The position numbers were made by a program, and so were the translations under genes. From Candidatus Saccharimonadia bacterium (GTDB taxonomy: Bacteria > Patescibacteriota > Saccharimonadia > Saccharimonadales > JALRHH01): 64,000 nucleotides of DNA. A model generated the notes under the pieces. That model was not told the DNA's origin. It did not search any database and saw nothing but the letters and a program-made list of their open reading frames with translations. Positions within the stretch are counted from its first letter, which is position 1. Every line of letters begins with the position of its first letter. Positions 4,909 through 62,807 of this stretch are shown here, in pieces. The stretch lies in NCBI GenBank assembly GCA_023253175.1, contig JALRHH010000002.1, positions 320,199 to 384,198 of the forward strand, in the 5' to 3' direction.

Positions 4909-4947
4909 CATCACTGATTGTAACAGGGGTAGGAAGCTGGTATACTT

Positions 4948-5238
4948 ATGCATATGAGTAGTCATGACGATATCCAAAGACAAGCAGAGCGTATGCGCAA
5001 CACCCTGAAGGATTGGCTTGATATGCCCGGTCATTCGCAGGCCAAAGCCGTGCAGCAAAATATCGAACGTTTGATTAGTGATGCTCGAGGTAAGAAGAGC
5101 CGCGAAGCACTCGACAATGACCTGAAACAGATTATGCAGAGTCTCGAGCGTGTCGAGGAAGAAGTCATGGATCACCACCACAGCGACAAGCTGATTGGTA
5201 TGTGTGAAGACCTTCGCCGCGAAGCATCCCGACTTTAA
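4948..5238 (+). CDS. hypothetical helical protein
   Basis: 96-aa ORF, charged and helical, with no motif. Confidence 0.45.
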   Translation: MHMSSHDDIQRQAERMRNTLKDWLDMPGHSQAKAVQQNIERLISDARGKKSREALDNDLKQIMQSLERVEEEVMDHHHSDKLIGMCEDLRREASRL

Positions 5239-5409
5239 CAGAGATGATATACTAGTAACAACCACAGATAAGTGGATGTTTAGGCGAGCGCAGATTGGGA
5301 TGCTGAACGAGGCTTGATCTGGAGTCGTACTGATGTACGACGAAAGGTCAGACGTAAGTTCAGCGCCCAAGGTGGGCCGCATTAACATTCACGCACACAA
5401 GGAGTAAGA

Positions 5410-5976
5410 ATGGCACTTGGAGTTACGGATTTAAAAAAAGGACAGGTATTTCAGATGGATGGTACACCGTACCGCGTCGTTGAATATTCCCAGAAGGTTG
5501 TGGGCCGCGGTGGTTCAATCGTGAATGTTAAGATCAAGAGCTTGCTTGATGGCAAAGTATTGGCAAAGACATTCAAAGGTAACGAATCTATTGAGCCAGC
5601 TGATATTACCAATAAAAATGTCCAGTTCTTGTATTCAGACGACAATACATTTTTCTTTATGGATGAAGATACTTATGAACAGTTTGAACTATCCGCAGAA
5701 GACATGGAATCGCAGAAGGGTTACATGAAGGAAGGCGACCGCGTGCAGGCGCAGCTGTTTGACGGCCGCGTGATAAACATTGAACTTGCTAAGAACGTAC
5801 CACTAAAGGTTGTGTATACCGAAAATGTCGTCAAGGGCGATACGACCAGTAGTGTACTCAAGGATGCCGAAGTAGAGACTGGCATTACTGTCAAAGTACC
5901 AGCCTTTATAAAGGAAGGTGATCTGATTTCTGTTGATACCACGACAGGCGCATACCGCGAACGCGTGAAGGATTAA
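5410..5976 (+). CDS. efp: elongation factor P
   Basis: GVTDLKKGQVFQMDGTPYRVVEYSQKVVGRGGSIVNVKIKSLLDGKV; typical length of 188 aa; AAGGAG RBS. Confidence 0.95.
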   Translation: MALGVTDLKKGQVFQMDGTPYRVVEYSQKVVGRGGSIVNVKIKSLLDGKVLAKTFKGNESIEPADITNKNVQFLYSDDNTFFFMDEDTYEQFELSAEDMESQKGYMKEGDRVQAQLFDGRVINIELAKNVPLKVVYTENVVKGDTTSSVLKDAEVETGITVKVPAFIKEGDLISVDTTTGAYRERVKD

Positions 5977-5978
5977 GC

Positions 5979-6464
5979 ATGTCGGCACCGCTTAACCATA
6001 CAATGTTAGCACTCACATTTGAGCAGTACCCAGATGGTTATGAGACTGAAAAAGTCCCACGTCATATCACGGTTTTACCATGGTTCACAGGCGATGAGCA
6101 CAATACGACTCAAATTATCAGTGAGGCTTGTGGGCAGACAGGGCCCATAGAGGTTTTGCCCGGAAAACTTGGACAAGTAGGGTCAGAGGGATACTGGAAG
6201 GCTGCACGTTTCCTGGAGAGTTCCGCACTTCGTCTATTCCATAAAAGACTATTCTCCGAGCTCGTGAAGGAGGGTATTGCATTTTCTCATCCCCAGTGGC
6301 TTGGAGATAACTACGCCCCACATATTCGTGTAAAACCAGGAGATTCGGATTTTTATCCGGAAGGCTACACGTTTTCTAGTCTTGCAATGGTACGTAATGG
6401 TAGGGGGATTATCGACGGGGCTGCGCGTAAAACCATTACTAATATTCCACTAGGCAATCGTTAA
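5979..6464 (+). CDS. 2H phosphoesterase superfamily protein, paralog 1
   Basis: 161 aa. The first motif PRHITVLPWF is HxTx. The second, YAPHIRVK, is HxR and so degenerate. Same architecture as the next two ORFs. Confidence 0.6.
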   Translation: MSAPLNHTMLALTFEQYPDGYETEKVPRHITVLPWFTGDEHNTTQIISEACGQTGPIEVLPGKLGQVGSEGYWKAARFLESSALRLFHKRLFSELVKEGIAFSHPQWLGDNYAPHIRVKPGDSDFYPEGYTFSSLAMVRNGRGIIDGAARKTITNIPLGNR

Positions 6465-6943
6465 TGCATGCATATTTACTCGCACTTGAGATTGAACCAG
6501 TAGAAATTGGTAAGGTGTATGTGGCATTGCCACTGCACTGTACGGTGGTGCACTGGTTCCGTTCCGACAAAACACCGGCTGAAATCCTGAAGGCTATTAC
6601 ACCGGTTGTAACGACGACTGCACCACTTGAACTTGTCAGCGGGCCGGAAGATATGTTTGGCAAGGACAAGGACGTGCCGGTAAATAGATTGCTCAATGAT
6701 GAAAAGCTCATGGCTCTTCACAAGTCGCTGCATACACTACTACAGCAGATTGGGGCAAGGGACGTAGAGCCGATCTGGACGGGTGATGGATTTAATATGC
6801 ATGTCACTAGGCAACGAAGTGGTCGGTTCGAGGAGGGGCGGCGGTTTACTGCCCGAAAATTATACCTGGCAGAGGCGCTGTTACCTGATGAACTGCAGCA
6901 GAAGAAAATTACCTCAAAACTCATTTTAAAGGGTGATTCATGA
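6464..6943 (+). CDS. 2H phosphoesterase superfamily protein, paralog 2
   Basis: 159 aa with two HxT motifs, LHCTVVHWF and NMHVTRQ. Start overlaps the previous stop (TAATG). Confidence 0.6.
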   Translation: MHAYLLALEIEPVEIGKVYVALPLHCTVVHWFRSDKTPAEILKAITPVVTTTAPLELVSGPEDMFGKDKDVPVNRLLNDEKLMALHKSLHTLLQQIGARDVEPIWTGDGFNMHVTRQRSGRFEEGRRFTARKLYLAEALLPDELQQKKITSKLILKGDS

Positions 6944-7425
6944 ATCCCGGTGCATTAGTGCTTGTTGCAATGGTAGACCCGGCTTCTGTGCCGTCAACAT
7001 TTCGCAGAAAGCTTCTAGAGTGGCCGTTACATGTGACGGTCGCGCCATGGTTTTCGGTGCCCGACGAGGACCTATTTATTCAATTCCTAGAGCGGAACTT
7101 ACCAAGTGAGCCAAGTTTTGAATCACTTATGGGTGAGGATGCAGCTTTTGGTGCAGACAACGAAATTCCGGTAACGCTCGTTTCGAACAGGGAGCCATTT
7201 GCGGTACTGCACAATTATTTGCTCGAAGCGATTCATGGTTATGACGGCGTGATGCTCGTGAACACATGGATCCGCGAAAACTATAAGCCACATGTCACGC
7301 ATCATGGCGAAAACAGATTATTCCCCGGTGATACATTTATGGTTCGCTCACTGACCTTGGTGAGATTACTGGATGAAGATGTGTGCGAAGTTGTAACATC
7401 ATTTGCTTTAGGAGCAGGGAAATGA
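6940..7425 (+). CDS. 2H phosphoesterase superfamily protein, paralog 3
   Basis: 161 aa with two HxT motifs, LHVTVAPWF and KPHVTHH. ATGA overlaps at both ends. Confidence 0.6.
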   Translation: MNPGALVLVAMVDPASVPSTFRRKLLEWPLHVTVAPWFSVPDEDLFIQFLERNLPSEPSFESLMGEDAAFGADNEIPVTLVSNREPFAVLHNYLLEAIHGYDGVMLVNTWIRENYKPHVTHHGENRLFPGDTFMVRSLTLVRLLDEDVCEVVTSFALGAGK

Positions 7426-8138
7426 AACAAAGATTAGATCAGGTGCTTGTGGTGAAAGGGCTACTACCAACCCGTAGTCAGGCAGAGAATTTTATCCGCC
7501 TCGGCGACGTAACGGTAAACGGCAAAGTGGTGACTAAGCCGGGATTTATGCTAAATCCTAATGATACGGTTGAGCTTACCGCTAAGGAACAGTATGTATC
7601 CCGTGCTGGTCTAAAACTTGCATCGATTGCCAAGATTCTGAACCTAAATTTCAAGGGTGCTGTCGTGCTGGACGTTGGATCAAGCACCGGTGGGTTTACG
7701 GATTACGCTCTCCAGCACGGCGCAGATCACGTTATTGCAGTGGATGTCGGCACGAACCAGCTGCATCCAAGTCTGCATGGCAATCCAAAGATTGAATTGT
7801 ACGAGCAAACCGACATACGTGATGTTAAGGCGCTGTCGCGGGCGGCGGATATCGTCGTGATTGATGTATCGTTTATTAGTCTGCGGGAAATATTGCCGAC
7901 AGTCGCTAAGTTATCTACCAAAGGCACTAAGATTGCTGCCATGGTTAAGCCACAGTTCGAGGCAGGGAATAATGCCAAGCACAAAGGCGTAATCAAGAAC
8001 GATCGTATGCGCCGTGATATTCTGCAGGATTTTGAAATGTGGGCAAAAAAGTACTTTGTGGTTCTTGATAAGGCGGATTCCGAGGTTGCGGGAACCAAAG
8101 GAAACCGCGAACGGTTCTACCTGTTGCAAAAGGTATAG
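7422..8138 (+). CDS. tlyA: TlyA-family rRNA 2'-O-methyltransferase (S4 + FtsJ domains)
   Basis: MKQRLDQVLVVKGLLPTRSQAENFIRLGDVTVNG (S4 domain) followed by VLDVGSSTGGFTDYALQHGA (SAM-binding). I set the start at ATG 7422, which overlaps the previous stop. Confidence 0.9.
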   Translation: MKQRLDQVLVVKGLLPTRSQAENFIRLGDVTVNGKVVTKPGFMLNPNDTVELTAKEQYVSRAGLKLASIAKILNLNFKGAVVLDVGSSTGGFTDYALQHGADHVIAVDVGTNQLHPSLHGNPKIELYEQTDIRDVKALSRAADIVVIDVSFISLREILPTVAKLSTKGTKIAAMVKPQFEAGNNAKHKGVIKNDRMRRDILQDFEMWAKKYFVVLDKADSEVAGTKGNRERFYLLQKV

Positions 8139-8141
8139 ATA

Positions 8142-8171
8142 TTGACAAAATAGCATTAAATATGCTATAAT
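8142..8171 (+). promoter_or_regulatory. near-consensus sigma70 promoter
   Basis: TTGACA (8142-8147), an 18-nt spacer, then TATAAT (8166-8171). It lies in AT-rich native-looking sequence just upstream of the GC-rich ORF. Confidence 0.6.
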
Positions 8172-8230
8172 AGAAGGATGTAACCAGTTCTGGCTGCATG
8201 TTCTTCCCCAACAAGAGAGGACGCATTACA

Positions 8231-8668
8231 ATGCGATCTTTCCGTTTCAACCCCACGTCAATCATCACGGTCGTCGCTGTGGTGGCAGGCTACTTCGCCT
8301 TGTCGGCATCCACCGCACAGGCAGGAGAAGATGACCTGAAGGCCGTTCACCCGAACGTGATCAGCAGGACCATCAACGAGCCGTGCCCCAGGGGCTTCGA
8401 CAAGCAGTTCAAGGCGCGACTCGTCGTTCCGAAGGGCAGCAGGATCTACAAGGCTCTCGAGCTCAAGATCCTCTTCTCTGGAGGCGATGCGCCCGAGGAA
8501 TCCGGCCAGAAGATCAACTCGCGTACCTACGAGTACTTCGTGACCGCACCCTCGCGCAAGAGCACCATCGACCTCTACCGGCTGCGGTACATCGCGATCT
8601 ACGCGGACTACTCCGGCCACACCTACAAGTTCAAGCTGAGCCACACCTGTATGTCGCGTGAAGTCTGA
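8231..8668 (+). CDS. small secreted protein encoded in a GC3-rich islet (likely foreign)
   Basis: Signal peptide MRSFRFNPTSIITVVAVVAGYFALSASTAQA|GEDD with GAGAGGA upstream. By my hand count about 120 of 145 codons end in G/C, unlike the neighbouring genes. Confidence 0.7.
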   Translation: MRSFRFNPTSIITVVAVVAGYFALSASTAQAGEDDLKAVHPNVISRTINEPCPRGFDKQFKARLVVPKGSRIYKALELKILFSGGDAPEESGQKINSRTYEYFVTAPSRKSTIDLYRLRYIAIYADYSGHTYKFKLSHTCMSREV

Positions 8669-9624: not shown

Positions 9625-9739
9625 CATTGTTCTGAAATAAACAAATAACCAATAATAGAAAGCGAACTACCGGAATTCCGGTTATTTCCAAAAAAACGCA
9701 AAAAACTTGCGTACACGATTCTTCTTCGGAGACTCTTGT

Positions 9740-10660
9740 ATGAAAACAAAAACAACTTATTACAAGATTGGTCAAAGCTTACCGCCCAGGCACTGGTATC
9801 AGCGGCGTGTTGGTTGGTTCGGTAAAAGTATGGTTGCCGTGATGGCGCTTGTTGTTATTGGCGGTGGTGCATACGGCAAGTTTATGCTGCACGAGGAAAG
9901 CAAGGTGCGAGCGTCTCAGTCTAGTAGACTTGAGAAGCTCAATAAAACGACACCTGTACTCAGTAGCAGTAATGAAAACATTATTGATGTTCAATTTGTA
10001 CTTGACCGTTGGGCAAAGGAACGTAGTGGGGAGACCTGGAGTGTTTCGGCACGTAGTATTGATGGGGCAAAATTTCAGGCACAAATTAATGGCGACAAGT
10101 CCTACGAATCCGTAACAGCTGGTCAACTCCTCCTGACACTGCCGCTATTCTCTCAGATACCAGCAGAACAACACAAAGGCATCCAGCTCAGTTCCGGTAA
10201 AAAGATGGAAGCCTGCGTTAACCTAATGATCCGACTTGGCGATACTGACTGCGGTAATCAGGTTGCGGGTTACATTGATTTCCGAAAAGTAGATGGAGTA
10301 TTACAAAAAAACGGTATTAAAAAGACTTCGTTTACTGGAACCAAGGCACGAACTACGGCCGATGACATGGCTGCATTTATGGCAGTGTTGCAAGGTGGTG
10401 TGCTCCAGAAGAATGCTCAGGATGTGGTGCTCAAATCATTACGTGAGCAGCGCATTCGCAGTGGTATTCCGGCGGCTTGTCCGGGCTGTGTCATTGCAAA
10501 CGAAGCTTCAGAATCATCAAGTGTTCATGACGTGGCGATCATTCAGTATAACGGTGGTAGCTATGTGCTCAGCATTTTTACGAAGGATGGATCTTTGGCT
10601 GATATTGCAGAGCTGAGCGGTCGCATCCAGCAAAAAATAATTGATACGGCAGCCCACTAA
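9740..10660 (+). CDS. membrane-anchored class A beta-lactamase-like protein with all three catalytic motifs degenerate
   Basis: Aligns along its length with the next ORF. However SxxK is SVTA, SDN is GDT and KTG is EAS. I set the start at ATG 9740, behind GGAGA. Confidence 0.65.
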   Translation: MKTKTTYYKIGQSLPPRHWYQRRVGWFGKSMVAVMALVVIGGGAYGKFMLHEESKVRASQSSRLEKLNKTTPVLSSSNENIIDVQFVLDRWAKERSGETWSVSARSIDGAKFQAQINGDKSYESVTAGQLLLTLPLFSQIPAEQHKGIQLSSGKKMEACVNLMIRLGDTDCGNQVAGYIDFRKVDGVLQKNGIKKTSFTGTKARTTADDMAAFMAVLQGGVLQKNAQDVVLKSLREQRIRSGIPAACPGCVIANEASESSSVHDVAIIQYNGGSYVLSIFTKDGSLADIAELSGRIQQKIIDTAAH

Positions 10661-11580
10661 TGAATACTCGTCATTACGATATTTATGATGGTGCTTCTCG
10701 CTCGCGCGAGCATATTATTGTGGCTGCATTGGTTTTGCTCGTTATTGCTGCAGTCAGTAGCGTGCCAATTTTGGCCAGTCGCAGTGTCACGCAGCAGGCC
10801 GCGCAGGTTCCGGTTGTTACGGCGCCCGTGGAAAAAACTGAACCAGCAAAAGTCATTGAAGAGGCTGCTCCAGTCGTTGCTACTCCGCAGATTGTTGACT
10901 TGCAGCCCGTTCTTGATACTTGGGCAGCCGGGCACCCAAAACAGCAGTGGGGCGTATCCGTAAAAAGTCTGAGCGGAAAAGAATTCCAAGCAGAACTCAA
11001 CAGCGATAAGCAGTTCCGTTCAGCAAGTCTCTATAAGCTCTTTCTTGTGCAGCCGCTCTTTGCGAAGTACTCGTTAGCGCAGCAGCAAACTACCAGTGTT
11101 AAGGTTGGCGAATCAACTCGATCTTTGGCGTCTTGTGTTGATGTGATGCTGCGGCTCTCTGACAATCCATGCGGTGAAGCGGTTGCAGGGAAGCTTGGCT
11201 GGACAAAAGTAAGCCGAGAGCTTAAAGCAGCAGGTTATACCAAGACTGACCTAAGTAAAGCTGATGCAATCGTAACTTCTGCCGGTGATACGACCCGATA
11301 TCTAGAGCAGCTGAATGGAGCAATGCTTGATGAAGCGAGTAAGGCGGTGGTTATGAACTCGCTCTTAAAGCAAAAATGGAACCAAGGTATTCCGGCTGGT
11401 TGCCCTGGATGTACTGTCGCGAATAAGACAGGCAGTATACCGTCAATCACGCACGACGCGGCTATTGTGCAGTACGCGGGCGGCACCTATGTGATTACCA
11501 TTCTTTCTGAGGGCGGCACGTTCAAGCAGATCGCAGAGCTTACGGCGCAGATCCAAGCTGCAATTAACGCGGTTCAGTAG
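10660..11580 (+). CDS. membrane-anchored class A beta-lactamase-like serine hydrolase (motifs intact)
   Basis: SASLYK (SxxK), LSDNPCG (SDN) and NKTGS (KTG), with an N-terminal TM anchor. ATGA overlap with the previous ORF. Confidence 0.7.
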   Translation: MNTRHYDIYDGASRSREHIIVAALVLLVIAAVSSVPILASRSVTQQAAQVPVVTAPVEKTEPAKVIEEAAPVVATPQIVDLQPVLDTWAAGHPKQQWGVSVKSLSGKEFQAELNSDKQFRSASLYKLFLVQPLFAKYSLAQQQTTSVKVGESTRSLASCVDVMLRLSDNPCGEAVAGKLGWTKVSRELKAAGYTKTDLSKADAIVTSAGDTTRYLEQLNGAMLDEASKAVVMNSLLKQKWNQGIPAGCPGCTVANKTGSIPSITHDAAIVQYAGGTYVITILSEGGTFKQIAELTAQIQAAINAVQ

Positions 11581-59753: not shown

Positions 59754-61258
<1,505 letters not shown>

Positions 61259-61417: not shown

Positions 61418-61448
61418 AAAAAACACCCGAGTAATCGGGTGTTTTTTA
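61418..61448 (+). terminator. rho-independent terminator directly after the 16S gene
   Basis: AAAAAACACCCGA-gtaa-TCGGGTGTTTTTT. Confidence 0.8.
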
Positions 61449-61479
61449 TTCTATTGGTATAAGTTATTATCTTAGTAGT

Positions 61480-62505
61480 ATGCAGCATGAATCTCAAAAC
61501 AAAAATAATATAATCGTCAATACTATCCCAGCAAATGTTAAAAAAAATGTTTTTGATGCATATATTGCATTGGGTATTGGGCTGGTCGTAGGAGCGCCTT
61601 TACTCGTCCTTGCCATTTTTATCGGCATTTCTCAAATAGGTGCTTCATCTTATGGCCCTCAGGTTGATATTCTTGCAAGCGTTTCGTTTGTAGCAACTGC
61701 CATAGTGTCTGCCTTCATATTTTACAGAAAAGCTCGTTCTGTAAGATACGCACCATGGATTTTTTTGCTCGCTATCAGCCATTCTGTAATTATTTCTTTT
61801 TTGGTGACAACATTTACTGCCTGGCTTACCGCTCCACTCCATGTAGATAATCTACTATTTTCGGCTATCCTCGGCGGAAAATTTATGGCGTCACTGATGC
61901 TTGCTGTTTTGATTTTTGTATTCGGCCTACTCATATATTGTCTGGCTTCTTTATCGAATAAAGCGCGCCGCGAATATACCTTGATCACTCTTGTAATATT
62001 AACTATTTTAGCTGGGGTAGGTTTTGTATACGCGGGTCACCCCTCACAAAGCTCAATATTTAATGAAGACAGTTTGAGACTCAGAGCAGATACTGCTACG
62101 GTTGAAAAAGCTCCCTTCCAGATATACGCTCCTTCTCATGACACAGGATATACGTTTAAGGGAATTACAACTCCTGCCGCAGTTAGTGAGCGTACTTATA
62201 TTGGCTTATCTTTCCAGAAGGGTAAGAGCAAACAAGCTAAAATCACTCTTGAGCAGCAGGATTTTAAGTCAGTGAGTGCGTTCGATCTACAACCTTTAGA
62301 GGATTATCGCGGTAACGTGATAGCAGGGCTGTATGGAGAACGCAGTGGAGAATCATCAGGCTATACGAAAATCGCTACAAGAAAAGGTGACACTTATGTT
62401 GCGATTATCCAGTATCCAAGTATTTCAGTTATTGTTGCTCAATCTATATTTGATTCTTTGGAACCTGTTGTGAACAACAGGCTTAATAACTCGAGTGGTC
62501 AATAG
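61480..62505 (+). CDS. polytopic membrane protein of unknown function
   Basis: 341 aa with about six N-terminal TM helices and a soluble C-terminal domain. It lies between the 16S and 23S genes. Confidence 0.6.
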   Translation: MQHESQNKNNIIVNTIPANVKKNVFDAYIALGIGLVVGAPLLVLAIFIGISQIGASSYGPQVDILASVSFVATAIVSAFIFYRKARSVRYAPWIFLLAISHSVIISFLVTTFTAWLTAPLHVDNLLFSAILGGKFMASLMLAVLIFVFGLLIYCLASLSNKARREYTLITLVILTILAGVGFVYAGHPSQSSIFNEDSLRLRADTATVEKAPFQIYAPSHDTGYTFKGITTPAAVSERTYIGLSFQKGKSKQAKITLEQQDFKSVSAFDLQPLEDYRGNVIAGLYGERSGESSGYTKIATRKGDTYVAIIQYPSISVIVAQSIFDSLEPVVNNRLNNSSGQ

Positions 62506-62549: not shown

Positions 62550-62626
62550 TGGTGGGCGATGGTGGACTCGAACCACCGACCTCTACATTATCAGTGTAGC
62601 GCTCTAACCAGCTGAGCTAAACGCCC
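62550..62626 (-). tRNA. tRNA-Ile (anticodon GAU)
   Basis: GGGCGTT/TA/GCTC..GAGC/CTACA-CTGATAA-TGTAG/GGTGG-TTCGAGT-CCACC/ATCGCCC-A-CCA. Confidence 0.9.
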
Positions 62627-62730
62627 TCATGATCCCGAAGGGAAAAGAGCAGGTCAGTTTAGTCGCTTGCGACTCGGCTTTGCCGACTGACCGATGAGAA
62701 AAACCGTAGGTTTGTCTCATATTTGTAATC

Positions 62731-62807
62731 TGGTGGAGCGTCGGGGACTCGAACCCCGGACCCCCTGCTTGCAAAGCAGGTGCTCTAGCCAACTGAGCTA
62801 ACGCCCC
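62731..62807 (-). tRNA. tRNA-Ala (anticodon UGC)
   Basis: GGGGCGT.. with the G3-U70 identity pair, anticodon loop TTTGCAA, T arm CGGGG-TTCGAGT-CCCCG, then ACGCTCC-A-CCA. Confidence 0.9.

Follow-up and report, generated by a model that had tools for sequence, protein, structure and literature searches.

The genome of a Candidatus Saccharimonadia bacterium (assembly GCA_023253175.1) carries three consecutive genes of nearly equal length between efp and tlyA, and the question arises as to what these genes encode, how they came to stand side by side and what their products might do. We analyzed a 64,000-nucleotide (nt) stretch of contig JALRHH010000002.1 from position 320,199 to 384,198 (hereafter the window) and refer to the three genes and their products as p1, p2 and p3. 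Judged by their sequences, all three are members of one uncharacterized family of approximately 160 amino acids (aa) within the Pfam family PF13563. The reading that we favor, with some reserve, is that one operon encodes three cytoplasmic 2H enzymes of old types, which would act as 2',3'-cyclic phosphodiesterases with split specificity. The genes and their immediate neighbors are listed below by position in the window.

5410-5976, plus strand: efp, elongation factor P, 188 aa, adjoining p1 upstream (from the listing of open reading frames, ORFs)
5979-6464, plus strand: p1, 161-aa 2H phosphoesterase of the rare p1 type, the most divergent copy
6464-6943, plus strand: p2, 159-aa 2H phosphoesterase of the p2 type
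6940-7425, plus strand: p3, 161-aa 2H phosphoesterase of the p3 type
7422-8138, plus strand: tlyA-family rRNA 2'-O-methyltransferase, 238 aa from the ATG at 7422, with Pfam S4 and FtsJ domains

The initial annotation described three ORFs of about 160 aa with overlapping stop and start codons, placed between efp and tlyA. The ORF listing and direct reading of the sequence confirmed the exact coordinates, and the junctions and the S4 and FtsJ domains of tlyA bore out the placement. Syntenic orthologues of efp carry PF08207, PF01132 and PF09285, and the efp of the window is 86-97% identical to that of the relatives. Reading of the junctions showed that the TAA stop of efp (5974-5976) is separated by a gap of 2 nt from the ATG of p1 at 5979, that p1 and p2 overlap by 1 nt in TAATG, and that p2 and p3 overlap by 4 nt in ATGA. 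The stop of p3 is likewise overlapped, in ATGA, by the ATG at 7422, and this is therefore taken as the real start of tlyA. A consensus scan found no match to a strong promoter or terminator inside p1-p2-p3 and a perfect TTGACA-18-TATAAT sigma-70 match at 8142-8171, just 3' of tlyA. The GC content is 0.47-0.50 over p1, p2 and p3 and 0.44-0.49 in the neighboring genes. The simplest reading of the overlaps is that efp-p1-p2-p3-tlyA form a single transcription unit with translational coupling. The operon context in Saccharibacteria is one of translation and RNA modification, with S6, S18, SSB and efp upstream and the overlapping tlyA downstream, and the ATGA or TAATG overlap of the last 2H gene with tlyA recurs in four related loci (L001, L004, L005 and L015).

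Both p2 and p3 scored above the gathering cut-off of PF13563 (2_5_RNA_ligase2; 27 bits), at 38.5 and 32.5 bits, respectively; p1 fell slightly under it (24.5 bits, E 3e-5), and its relative P0091 bears the domain. A family hidden Markov model (HMM) built from 136 members recognized p1, p2 and p3 (E 1e-32, 3e-58 and 5e-51, respectively), which share only 24-28% pairwise identity, and matched none of the other ORFs in the window. The resemblance is far above what chance would give. No match for the trio was found in NCBIfam, PHROGs or PADLOC, and PF02834 (LigT_PEase) was not among its Pfam results. A profile of the three paralogs, compared with 1.84 billion cluster representatives, retrieved 1,383 proteins with E no higher than 1e-3, of which 766 stayed at or below 1e-10. 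The family comprises at least 1,383 such clusters (50% identity), and of the 150 best matches listed, nearly all were stand-alone proteins of 146-180 aa. Sequence searches of the PDB with p2 alone and then with the three-paralog profile retrieved nothing, and only the 136-sequence profile reached Bacillus subtilis YjcG (2d4g, E 2.9e-8). This alignment pairs the two HxT motifs but spans only profile positions 21-124 of 159. YjcG, rather than ThpR, is thus the closest solved structure by sequence. Profile alignment with hhalign to ThpR (using a sequence identical to 4QAK chain A) placed p2 H25 on His43, H113 on His125 and R118 on Arg130. The family assignment itself is not new, as the Joint Genome Institute (JGI) annotation of the orthologues already reads "2'-5' RNA ligase"; our literature search found no study on the family or on 2H enzymes in Saccharibacteria or Patescibacteria.

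The motifs on which the assignment rests were located by reading the sequence as follows.

6063-6086, plus strand: p1 proximal motif H29-I-T31-V-L-P-W35-F36, in which H, T, W and F are conserved family-wide
6240-6242, 6719-6721 and 7210-7212, plus strand: third His, in an LHxxL helix (p1 H88, p2 H86 and p3 H91, respectively)
6321-6329, plus strand: p1 distal motif H115-I-R117, with Arg at the Thr position of the family
6536-6559, plus strand: p2 proximal motif H25-C-T27-V-V-H-W31-F32
6800-6817, plus strand: p2 distal motif H113-V-T115-R116-Q-R118
7030-7053, plus strand: p3 proximal motif H31-V-T33-V-A-P-W37-F38
7291-7308, plus strand: p3 distal motif H118-V-T120-H-H-G (the commonest motif in the p3-type cluster is KPHVTHHGEN)

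The two motifs of the 2H superfamily were thus found in all three proteins, as HxT pairs in p2 and p3 and, in p1, as both His residues with R117 replacing the distal Thr, a replacement that the initial annotation had also recorded. Its description of the motifs held for all three paralogs with one exception: ahead of its first His, p1 has Arg where Pro or Leu had been given. In the first motif the His is preceded by R in p1 (H29) and by L in p2 (H25) and p3 (H31), and the distal His by P in p1 (H115), M in p2 (H113) and P in p3 (H118). In the alignment of 136 members, the first His, its Thr and the second His are fully conserved, and P23, F32, F65-G66, V73 and the third His H86 (p2 numbering) are nearly invariant. 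The core common to p1, p2 and p3 consists of P-L-H-x-T...W-F, F-G, V, the third His, the distal H-x-T and a Gly. The types are most clearly told apart by the residues that follow the distal His, where p2 reads HVTRQR, p3 HVTHHG and p1 HIRVK; among p2 orthologues R116 is invariant and position 118 is R, S or K.

Compared with the rest of the family, p1 carries other residues at four positions that are conserved elsewhere (V for F65, A for V73, R for T115 and E for G125, p2 numbering), and of the three it appears to be the most likely to hold a changed or non-catalytic role. The distal motif of its relatives is HIR in P0091 and HYR in P0069. In ThpR, the T127A mutant, which lacks the distal Thr, is fully active, whereas H43A, T45A, H125A and R130A are inactive; the HxTxxR segment of ThpR bears the essential phosphate-clamping Arg130 (PMC4201822). 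Because ThpR T127A retains activity, the HIR motif of p1 does not by itself imply inactivity.

AlphaFold2 models of p1 and p2, made with the 136-member alignment, were of high confidence (predicted local distance difference test score, pLDDT, 93.2 and predicted template modeling score, pTM, 0.88 for p1; 96.6 and 0.90 for p2) and had the same order of strands and helices; the fold of p3 was assigned from its HMM match. In the p2 model the His motifs open beta-strands 25-34 and 113-115. Foldseek searches of the PDB placed both models inside the 2H fold, where a position outside it had been named in advance as the refuting outcome: the top 30 or more matches were all 2H proteins. The best match of both models was the Deinococcus radiodurans cyclic phosphodiesterase (CPDase) 5h7e (E 2-3e-6, template modeling score, TM, 0.64-0.66), and the other top folds were ThpR/LigT (4qak and the 5ld* entries), YjcG (2d4g), Pyrococcus PH0099 (1vdx), a Pyrococcus furiosus protein (2fyh) and Thermus TT0787 (1iuh). 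The leading matches were 5h7e, 4qak, 2d4g, 1vdx and 1iuh for p2 and 5h7e, 2fyh, 1vdx and 4qak for p1, with TM scores of 0.60-0.67 for the CPDase, ThpR and YjcG matches. Usb1, plant CPDase, AKAP18 and viral 2',5'-phosphodiesterases (PDEs) ranked lower. Membership of the 2H superfamily is consequently borne out by PF13563, the family profile, the models, Foldseek and the alignments to ThpR and YjcG. Secretion by way of a signal peptide was considered and rejected, since the N-termini of p1 and p2 form beta-strand 1 of the modeled fold and that of p3 aligns there.

Clustering of 226 family sequences gave three separate groups, corresponding to the p1, p2 and p3 types. The p1 type (HIT..PWF and PH[IY]R) comprises only three distinct sequences, namely p1 itself (identical to P0068), P0069 (44% identity) and P0091 (52%), whereas 96 sequences belong to the p2 type (PLHCT..HWF and PHVTRQ[RSK]SG) and 45 to the p3 type (PLHxT..PWF and PHVTHHG). 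Homology searches retrieved 67 relatives of p2 (52-94% identity), 12 of p3, which lie on the same contigs as the nearest p2 orthologues, and, for p1, only p1 itself and the one relative at 44%. We then compared the slot between efp and tlyA at about 12 independent loci, mostly retrieved via p2 homologues. Its occupants were as follows.

L001/L017, L004, L013, L014 and the contig of P0005: p2 only
L015/L016: p3-type gene only (P0082)
L022, a 1.9-kb contig: p3-type gene directly upstream of tlyA
L018/L019: p1-type gene and p2, then an opposite-strand ORF before tlyA
L005 and L006: degenerate 178-179-aa protein, p2 and p3
Window and the identical contigs L007-L012: p1, p2 and p3

Among these loci, p2 was the usual single-copy occupant, as may be expected of a sample mostly retrieved through it. 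The cultivated Southlakia epibionticum has a serine hydrolase and no family member in this slot, and the Pfam table of this organism has neither a PF13563 nor a PF02834 entry (PMC10633639 and its supplements). The slot thus holds zero, one, two or three members, and three copies are not the lineage-wide feature of Saccharibacteria that might be supposed. What is new here is modest: three deep subtypes stand in tandem in one genome, and the number of slot occupants varies from zero to three across Saccharibacteria.

A local triplication of recent date, with very rapid divergence since, would explain why the genes are tandem, of equal length and in one operon, and it is in keeping with the finding that the 2H genes evolve several-fold faster than their neighbors. 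Same-type genes in distant Saccharibacteria, however, are 52% (p1), 54-63% (p2) and 45% (p3) identical, where efp is 86-91% identical, against 24-28% between types; each type forms its own sequence cluster; and arrangements with the p3 type only or with p1 and p2 exist. On these grounds we rejected the triplication, which we regard as highly improbable. Since same-type identity is far above between-type identity, ancient paralogy with differential loss is the more natural account, and the sequences argue for three old subtypes with lineage-specific retention. Horizontal acquisition of p1 or p3 was also set aside, as the GC content of the operon is uniform and the same types occupy the same slot elsewhere in Saccharibacteria.

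The rate of evolution of these genes was estimated from nonsynonymous divergence (dN). Between the window and L005, dN was 0.02 for efp, 0.09 for tlyA, 0.12 for p2 and 0.24 for p3; between L005 and L006, it was 0.06 for efp, 0.18 for p2, 0.28 for p3 and 0.42 for the gene in the first position of the slot (slot 1). Synonymous divergence (dS) was saturated even against the closest relative, which leaves dN/dS undefined, and the dN values are therefore to be read as relative ones. Because dN is well below the saturated dS, all of these genes are under purifying selection. Constraint falls in the order efp, tlyA, p2, p3 and is several-fold weaker on the 2H genes than on their housekeeping neighbors.

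Several other products were seen in the slots of the relatives. The slot-1 protein of 178-179 aa occurs in the sampled relatives with the most similar p2 (L005 3337-3876 and L006 3346-3882). It matches the family HMM with E 8e-5 and 4.5e-3, respectively, its first motif reads HIN or HVD, and the distal His motif is absent; the two proteins are about 50% identical and share a conserved C-terminal extension, DFRxDPLYLxSL. This protein is probably a pseudo-enzyme decayed from the family, a decay that is a new observation. A spacer of about 120 nt lies 5' of the first catalytic 2H gene in L004, L005, L006, L015 and the contig of P0005. In the spacers of L004 (3882-4001), L006 (3897-4001) and the P0005 contig, a mini-ORF of 34-39 aa with a hydrophobic C-terminal half was called (for example, MAKSKEQQSGGEILWNITQVGIALGFLALAAVGVEALVD in L004), and a similar mini-ORF was read in sequence only in L005 and L015. 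The stop of the mini-ORF overlaps the 2H start in these relatives; it is absent from the window, where p1 abuts p2. At the place of the p3 gene of the window, L018 carries on the minus strand (4946-5428) a 160-aa ORF with a hydrophobic segment and a weak match to DUF6404 (E 0.003).

As to function, the most likely activity, by analogy with the solved 2H enzymes, would be that of a cytoplasmic 2',3'-cyclic phosphodiesterase on RNA ends or nucleotides. By the mechanism of ThpR, LigT and CPDase, the His pairs (p2 H25/H113, p3 H31/H118 and p1 H29/H115) would supply the general acid and the general base that open a 2',3'-cyclic phosphate and leave a phosphomonoester. An RNA end bearing a 2',3'-cyclic phosphate (RNA>p) or a 2',3'-cyclic nucleoside monophosphate (2',3'-cNMP) would be the substrate, and p1, p2 and p3 probably divide such substrates among themselves. 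A split is suggested because the basic residues beside the distal His differ among the three; judging from this segment, each type probably binds the phosphate, and with it the substrate, in its own way. The diversified specificity proposed in the initial annotation is accordingly plausible, as the paralogs differ exactly in the residues after the distal His. In other lineages the p3 and p1 types would have been lost, or kept in place of p2.

The trio would appear to lie nearest to YjcG and to work most like ThpR and CPDase. YjcG (PDB 2D4G, PF13563) is the best sequence match among solved structures and the third-ranked fold match of p2, and it is a stand-alone single domain of similar size (171 aa). 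It differs in that identity in the fold alignments is 10-15%, in that it has Asn at the position of the third His (p2 H86) and in that it lacks the WF pair after the first motif. ThpR/LigT (4QAK and 5LDI) and the D. radiodurans CPDase (5H7E) share the fold (TM 0.60-0.66, E 1e-4 to 2e-6), and in ThpR both catalytic His residues align and the essential Arg130 is met by R118 of p2; however, they gave no direct sequence match and no PF02834 match, and the family of the trio is 15-25 residues shorter. The ThpR/LigT subfamily is defined by the extended motifs HxTxxF and HxTxxR (Remus et al. 2014, PMC4201822). Instead of the former, all three paralogs have HxTxxxWF, and in place of the latter p3 has HxTHHG and p1 HxRxK; HxTxxR is present in the p2 of the window, but its Arg is not conserved among p2 orthologues.

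Several points weigh against a shared 2',3'-cyclic phosphodiesterase activity. The extended motifs of ThpR are only partly present, with the aromatic residues at +6/+7 (WF) instead of +5, and the +5 Arg of p2 is R, S or K among orthologues and is absent in p1 and p3. Our literature search yielded no function for YjcG, the closest relative of solved structure, hence the match to it gives no substrate. The absence of the family from the slot and Pfam table of Southlakia implies that it is dispensable for this lifestyle. Neighbors outside Saccharibacteria also vary: a p2-like gene in L020 overlaps the end of miaA, other members stand beside folA, and a member on an Arthrobacter replicon lies between genes of the nitroreductase and phosphohexomutase families with a nucleobase permease gene about 1 kb upstream. 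With these neighbors and a GNAT fusion, context fixes no pathway. The fusion protein, P0147 (L026 223-1164; 313 aa), is a family member with a C-terminal GNAT acetyltransferase domain.

Other accounts of the trio were weighed against the same observations. The least improbable, though we still consider it unlikely, is a hetero-oligomer in which p2, perhaps with p3, is the enzyme and p1 a non-catalytic or ligand-binding subunit, held at a fixed ratio by translational coupling. The four departures of p1 from the family are in line with this, as is the slot-1 protein of L005 and L006, which has kept neither the first Thr nor any of the distal motif and yet persists as a conserved ORF, and overlapping stops and starts favor co-expression; p1, however, still has its first Thr and the two catalytic His residues, ThpR can do without its distal Thr (PMC4201822), and the p2 or p3 type stands alone in many genomes. 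Somewhat less likely again is a role tied to TlyA in the maturation or repair of rRNA or tRNA, where the 2H enzymes would process 2',3'-cyclic phosphate ends and TlyA would methylate the same RNA, in loose analogy to healing and methylation by Pnkp/Hen1. Lineages whose tlyA genes share only 74-89% identity still keep the overlap of the last 2H gene with tlyA, another organism has a p2-like gene coupled to miaA, and the remaining genes of the operon are translation genes. In Southlakia, on the other hand, a serine hydrolase gene and no 2H gene stands between efp and tlyA; in L018 p2 and tlyA are separated by 547 nt carrying an opposite-strand ORF; and other family members adjoin folA or metabolic genes. 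Moreover, no RNA ligase gene is nearby, and reduced genomes can conserve gene order without a functional link.

It is also conceivable, although we think it improbable, that the efp-tlyA slot is a fast-evolving cassette site whose three subtypes hydrolyze different cyclic phosphates of epibiotic life. If so, candidate substrates would include 2',3'-cNMPs derived from RNA scavenged from the host, RNA>p ends left by host or phage ribotoxins and cyclic-nucleotide signals, and the genome of the window, with all three types, would hold the broadest repertoire. The initial annotation had further named the phage nuclease Acb1 as a member of the superfamily and, as speculation, immune signals of the host as possible substrates; at least one paralog would then degrade the cyclic-oligonucleotide signals of an actinobacterial host (CBASS, Pycsar or type III CRISPR) in counter-defense. 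Acb1 and the poxvirus cyclic GMP-AMP (cGAMP) PDE are indeed 2H-fold enzymes that appeared as weak matches (7t26, E 0.02-0.13; 9bkq, E 0.03), and Acb1, penguinpox 9BKQ, rotavirus VP3 and mouse hepatitis virus (MHV) ns2 share the superfamily and its two His motifs. In addition, efp and tlyA are outpaced in evolution by the 2H genes, which also vary in copy number between lineages, a pattern that conflict genes show as well.

The fold match to Acb1 is nevertheless remote. In the PDB search it ranked 37-48 (7t26; TM 0.36-0.38, E 0.02-0.13), and in a search of predicted viral structures, where the best matches were generic 2H domains (TM about 0.6), it ranked 36 (TM 0.44). Over all fold searches its TM scores were thus 0.36-0.44 (E 0.002-0.13) against 0.60-0.67 for the cellular CPDases, and it was never a close match. 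The trio had no match in PADLOC or PHROG, tblastn against 50,697 phage records gave none, and scans of IMG/VR revealed no homologue. The genes have neither a signal peptide nor a secretion-related neighbor; they sit inside a housekeeping translation operon, a cellular setting unlike that of Acb1 and the viral PDEs, and homologues are present on the replicon of a free-living Arthrobacter. These findings leave the link to Acb1 and to host immune signals without support, and counter-defense seems most improbable.

On the favored reading of three old 2H types with divided specificity, the trio represents lineage-specific retention of old paralogs and is neither a hallmark of Saccharibacteria nor an Acb1-like counter-defense. 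For the present, the main result is a correction of annotation, as "2'-5' RNA ligase" is a historical misnomer for a family that has no characterized member in its at least 1,383 clusters. If the substrates of the subtypes differ, the family would offer a natural experiment on how residues adjacent to the distal His set 2H specificity, and it may point to a task in nucleotide salvage or RNA damage in bacteria unable to make nucleotides.

Other features of the window lie outside the operon. A 156-aa ORF at 8198-8668 (plus strand) has a hydrophobic N-terminal segment and no Pfam match; at about 0.59, its GC content exceeds that of the surrounding sequence (about 0.46), and the promoter match at 8142-8171, which is TG-extended, precedes it. 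A gene of 145-146 aa lies at the same place in L005 and L007 and is absent from L001, L004 and L015. The ORF looks like a recent insertion between tlyA and a phosphoribosyltransferase gene. Downstream of the latter, two consecutive genes of the Beta-lactamase2 family (PF13354) lie at 9707-11577 (plus strand); relatives have one or two copies at this spot, which is another site of variable copy number nearby. The 16S rRNA gene of the window (59755-61257, plus strand) and the start of the 23S rRNA gene (63557 onward, plus strand) are 2.3 kb apart. The spacer between them contains a 356-aa ORF (61435-62502, plus strand) with no Pfam match, as well as the usual tRNA-Ile(GAT) and tRNA-Ala(TGC) genes, which lie, however, on the minus strand (62550-62807).

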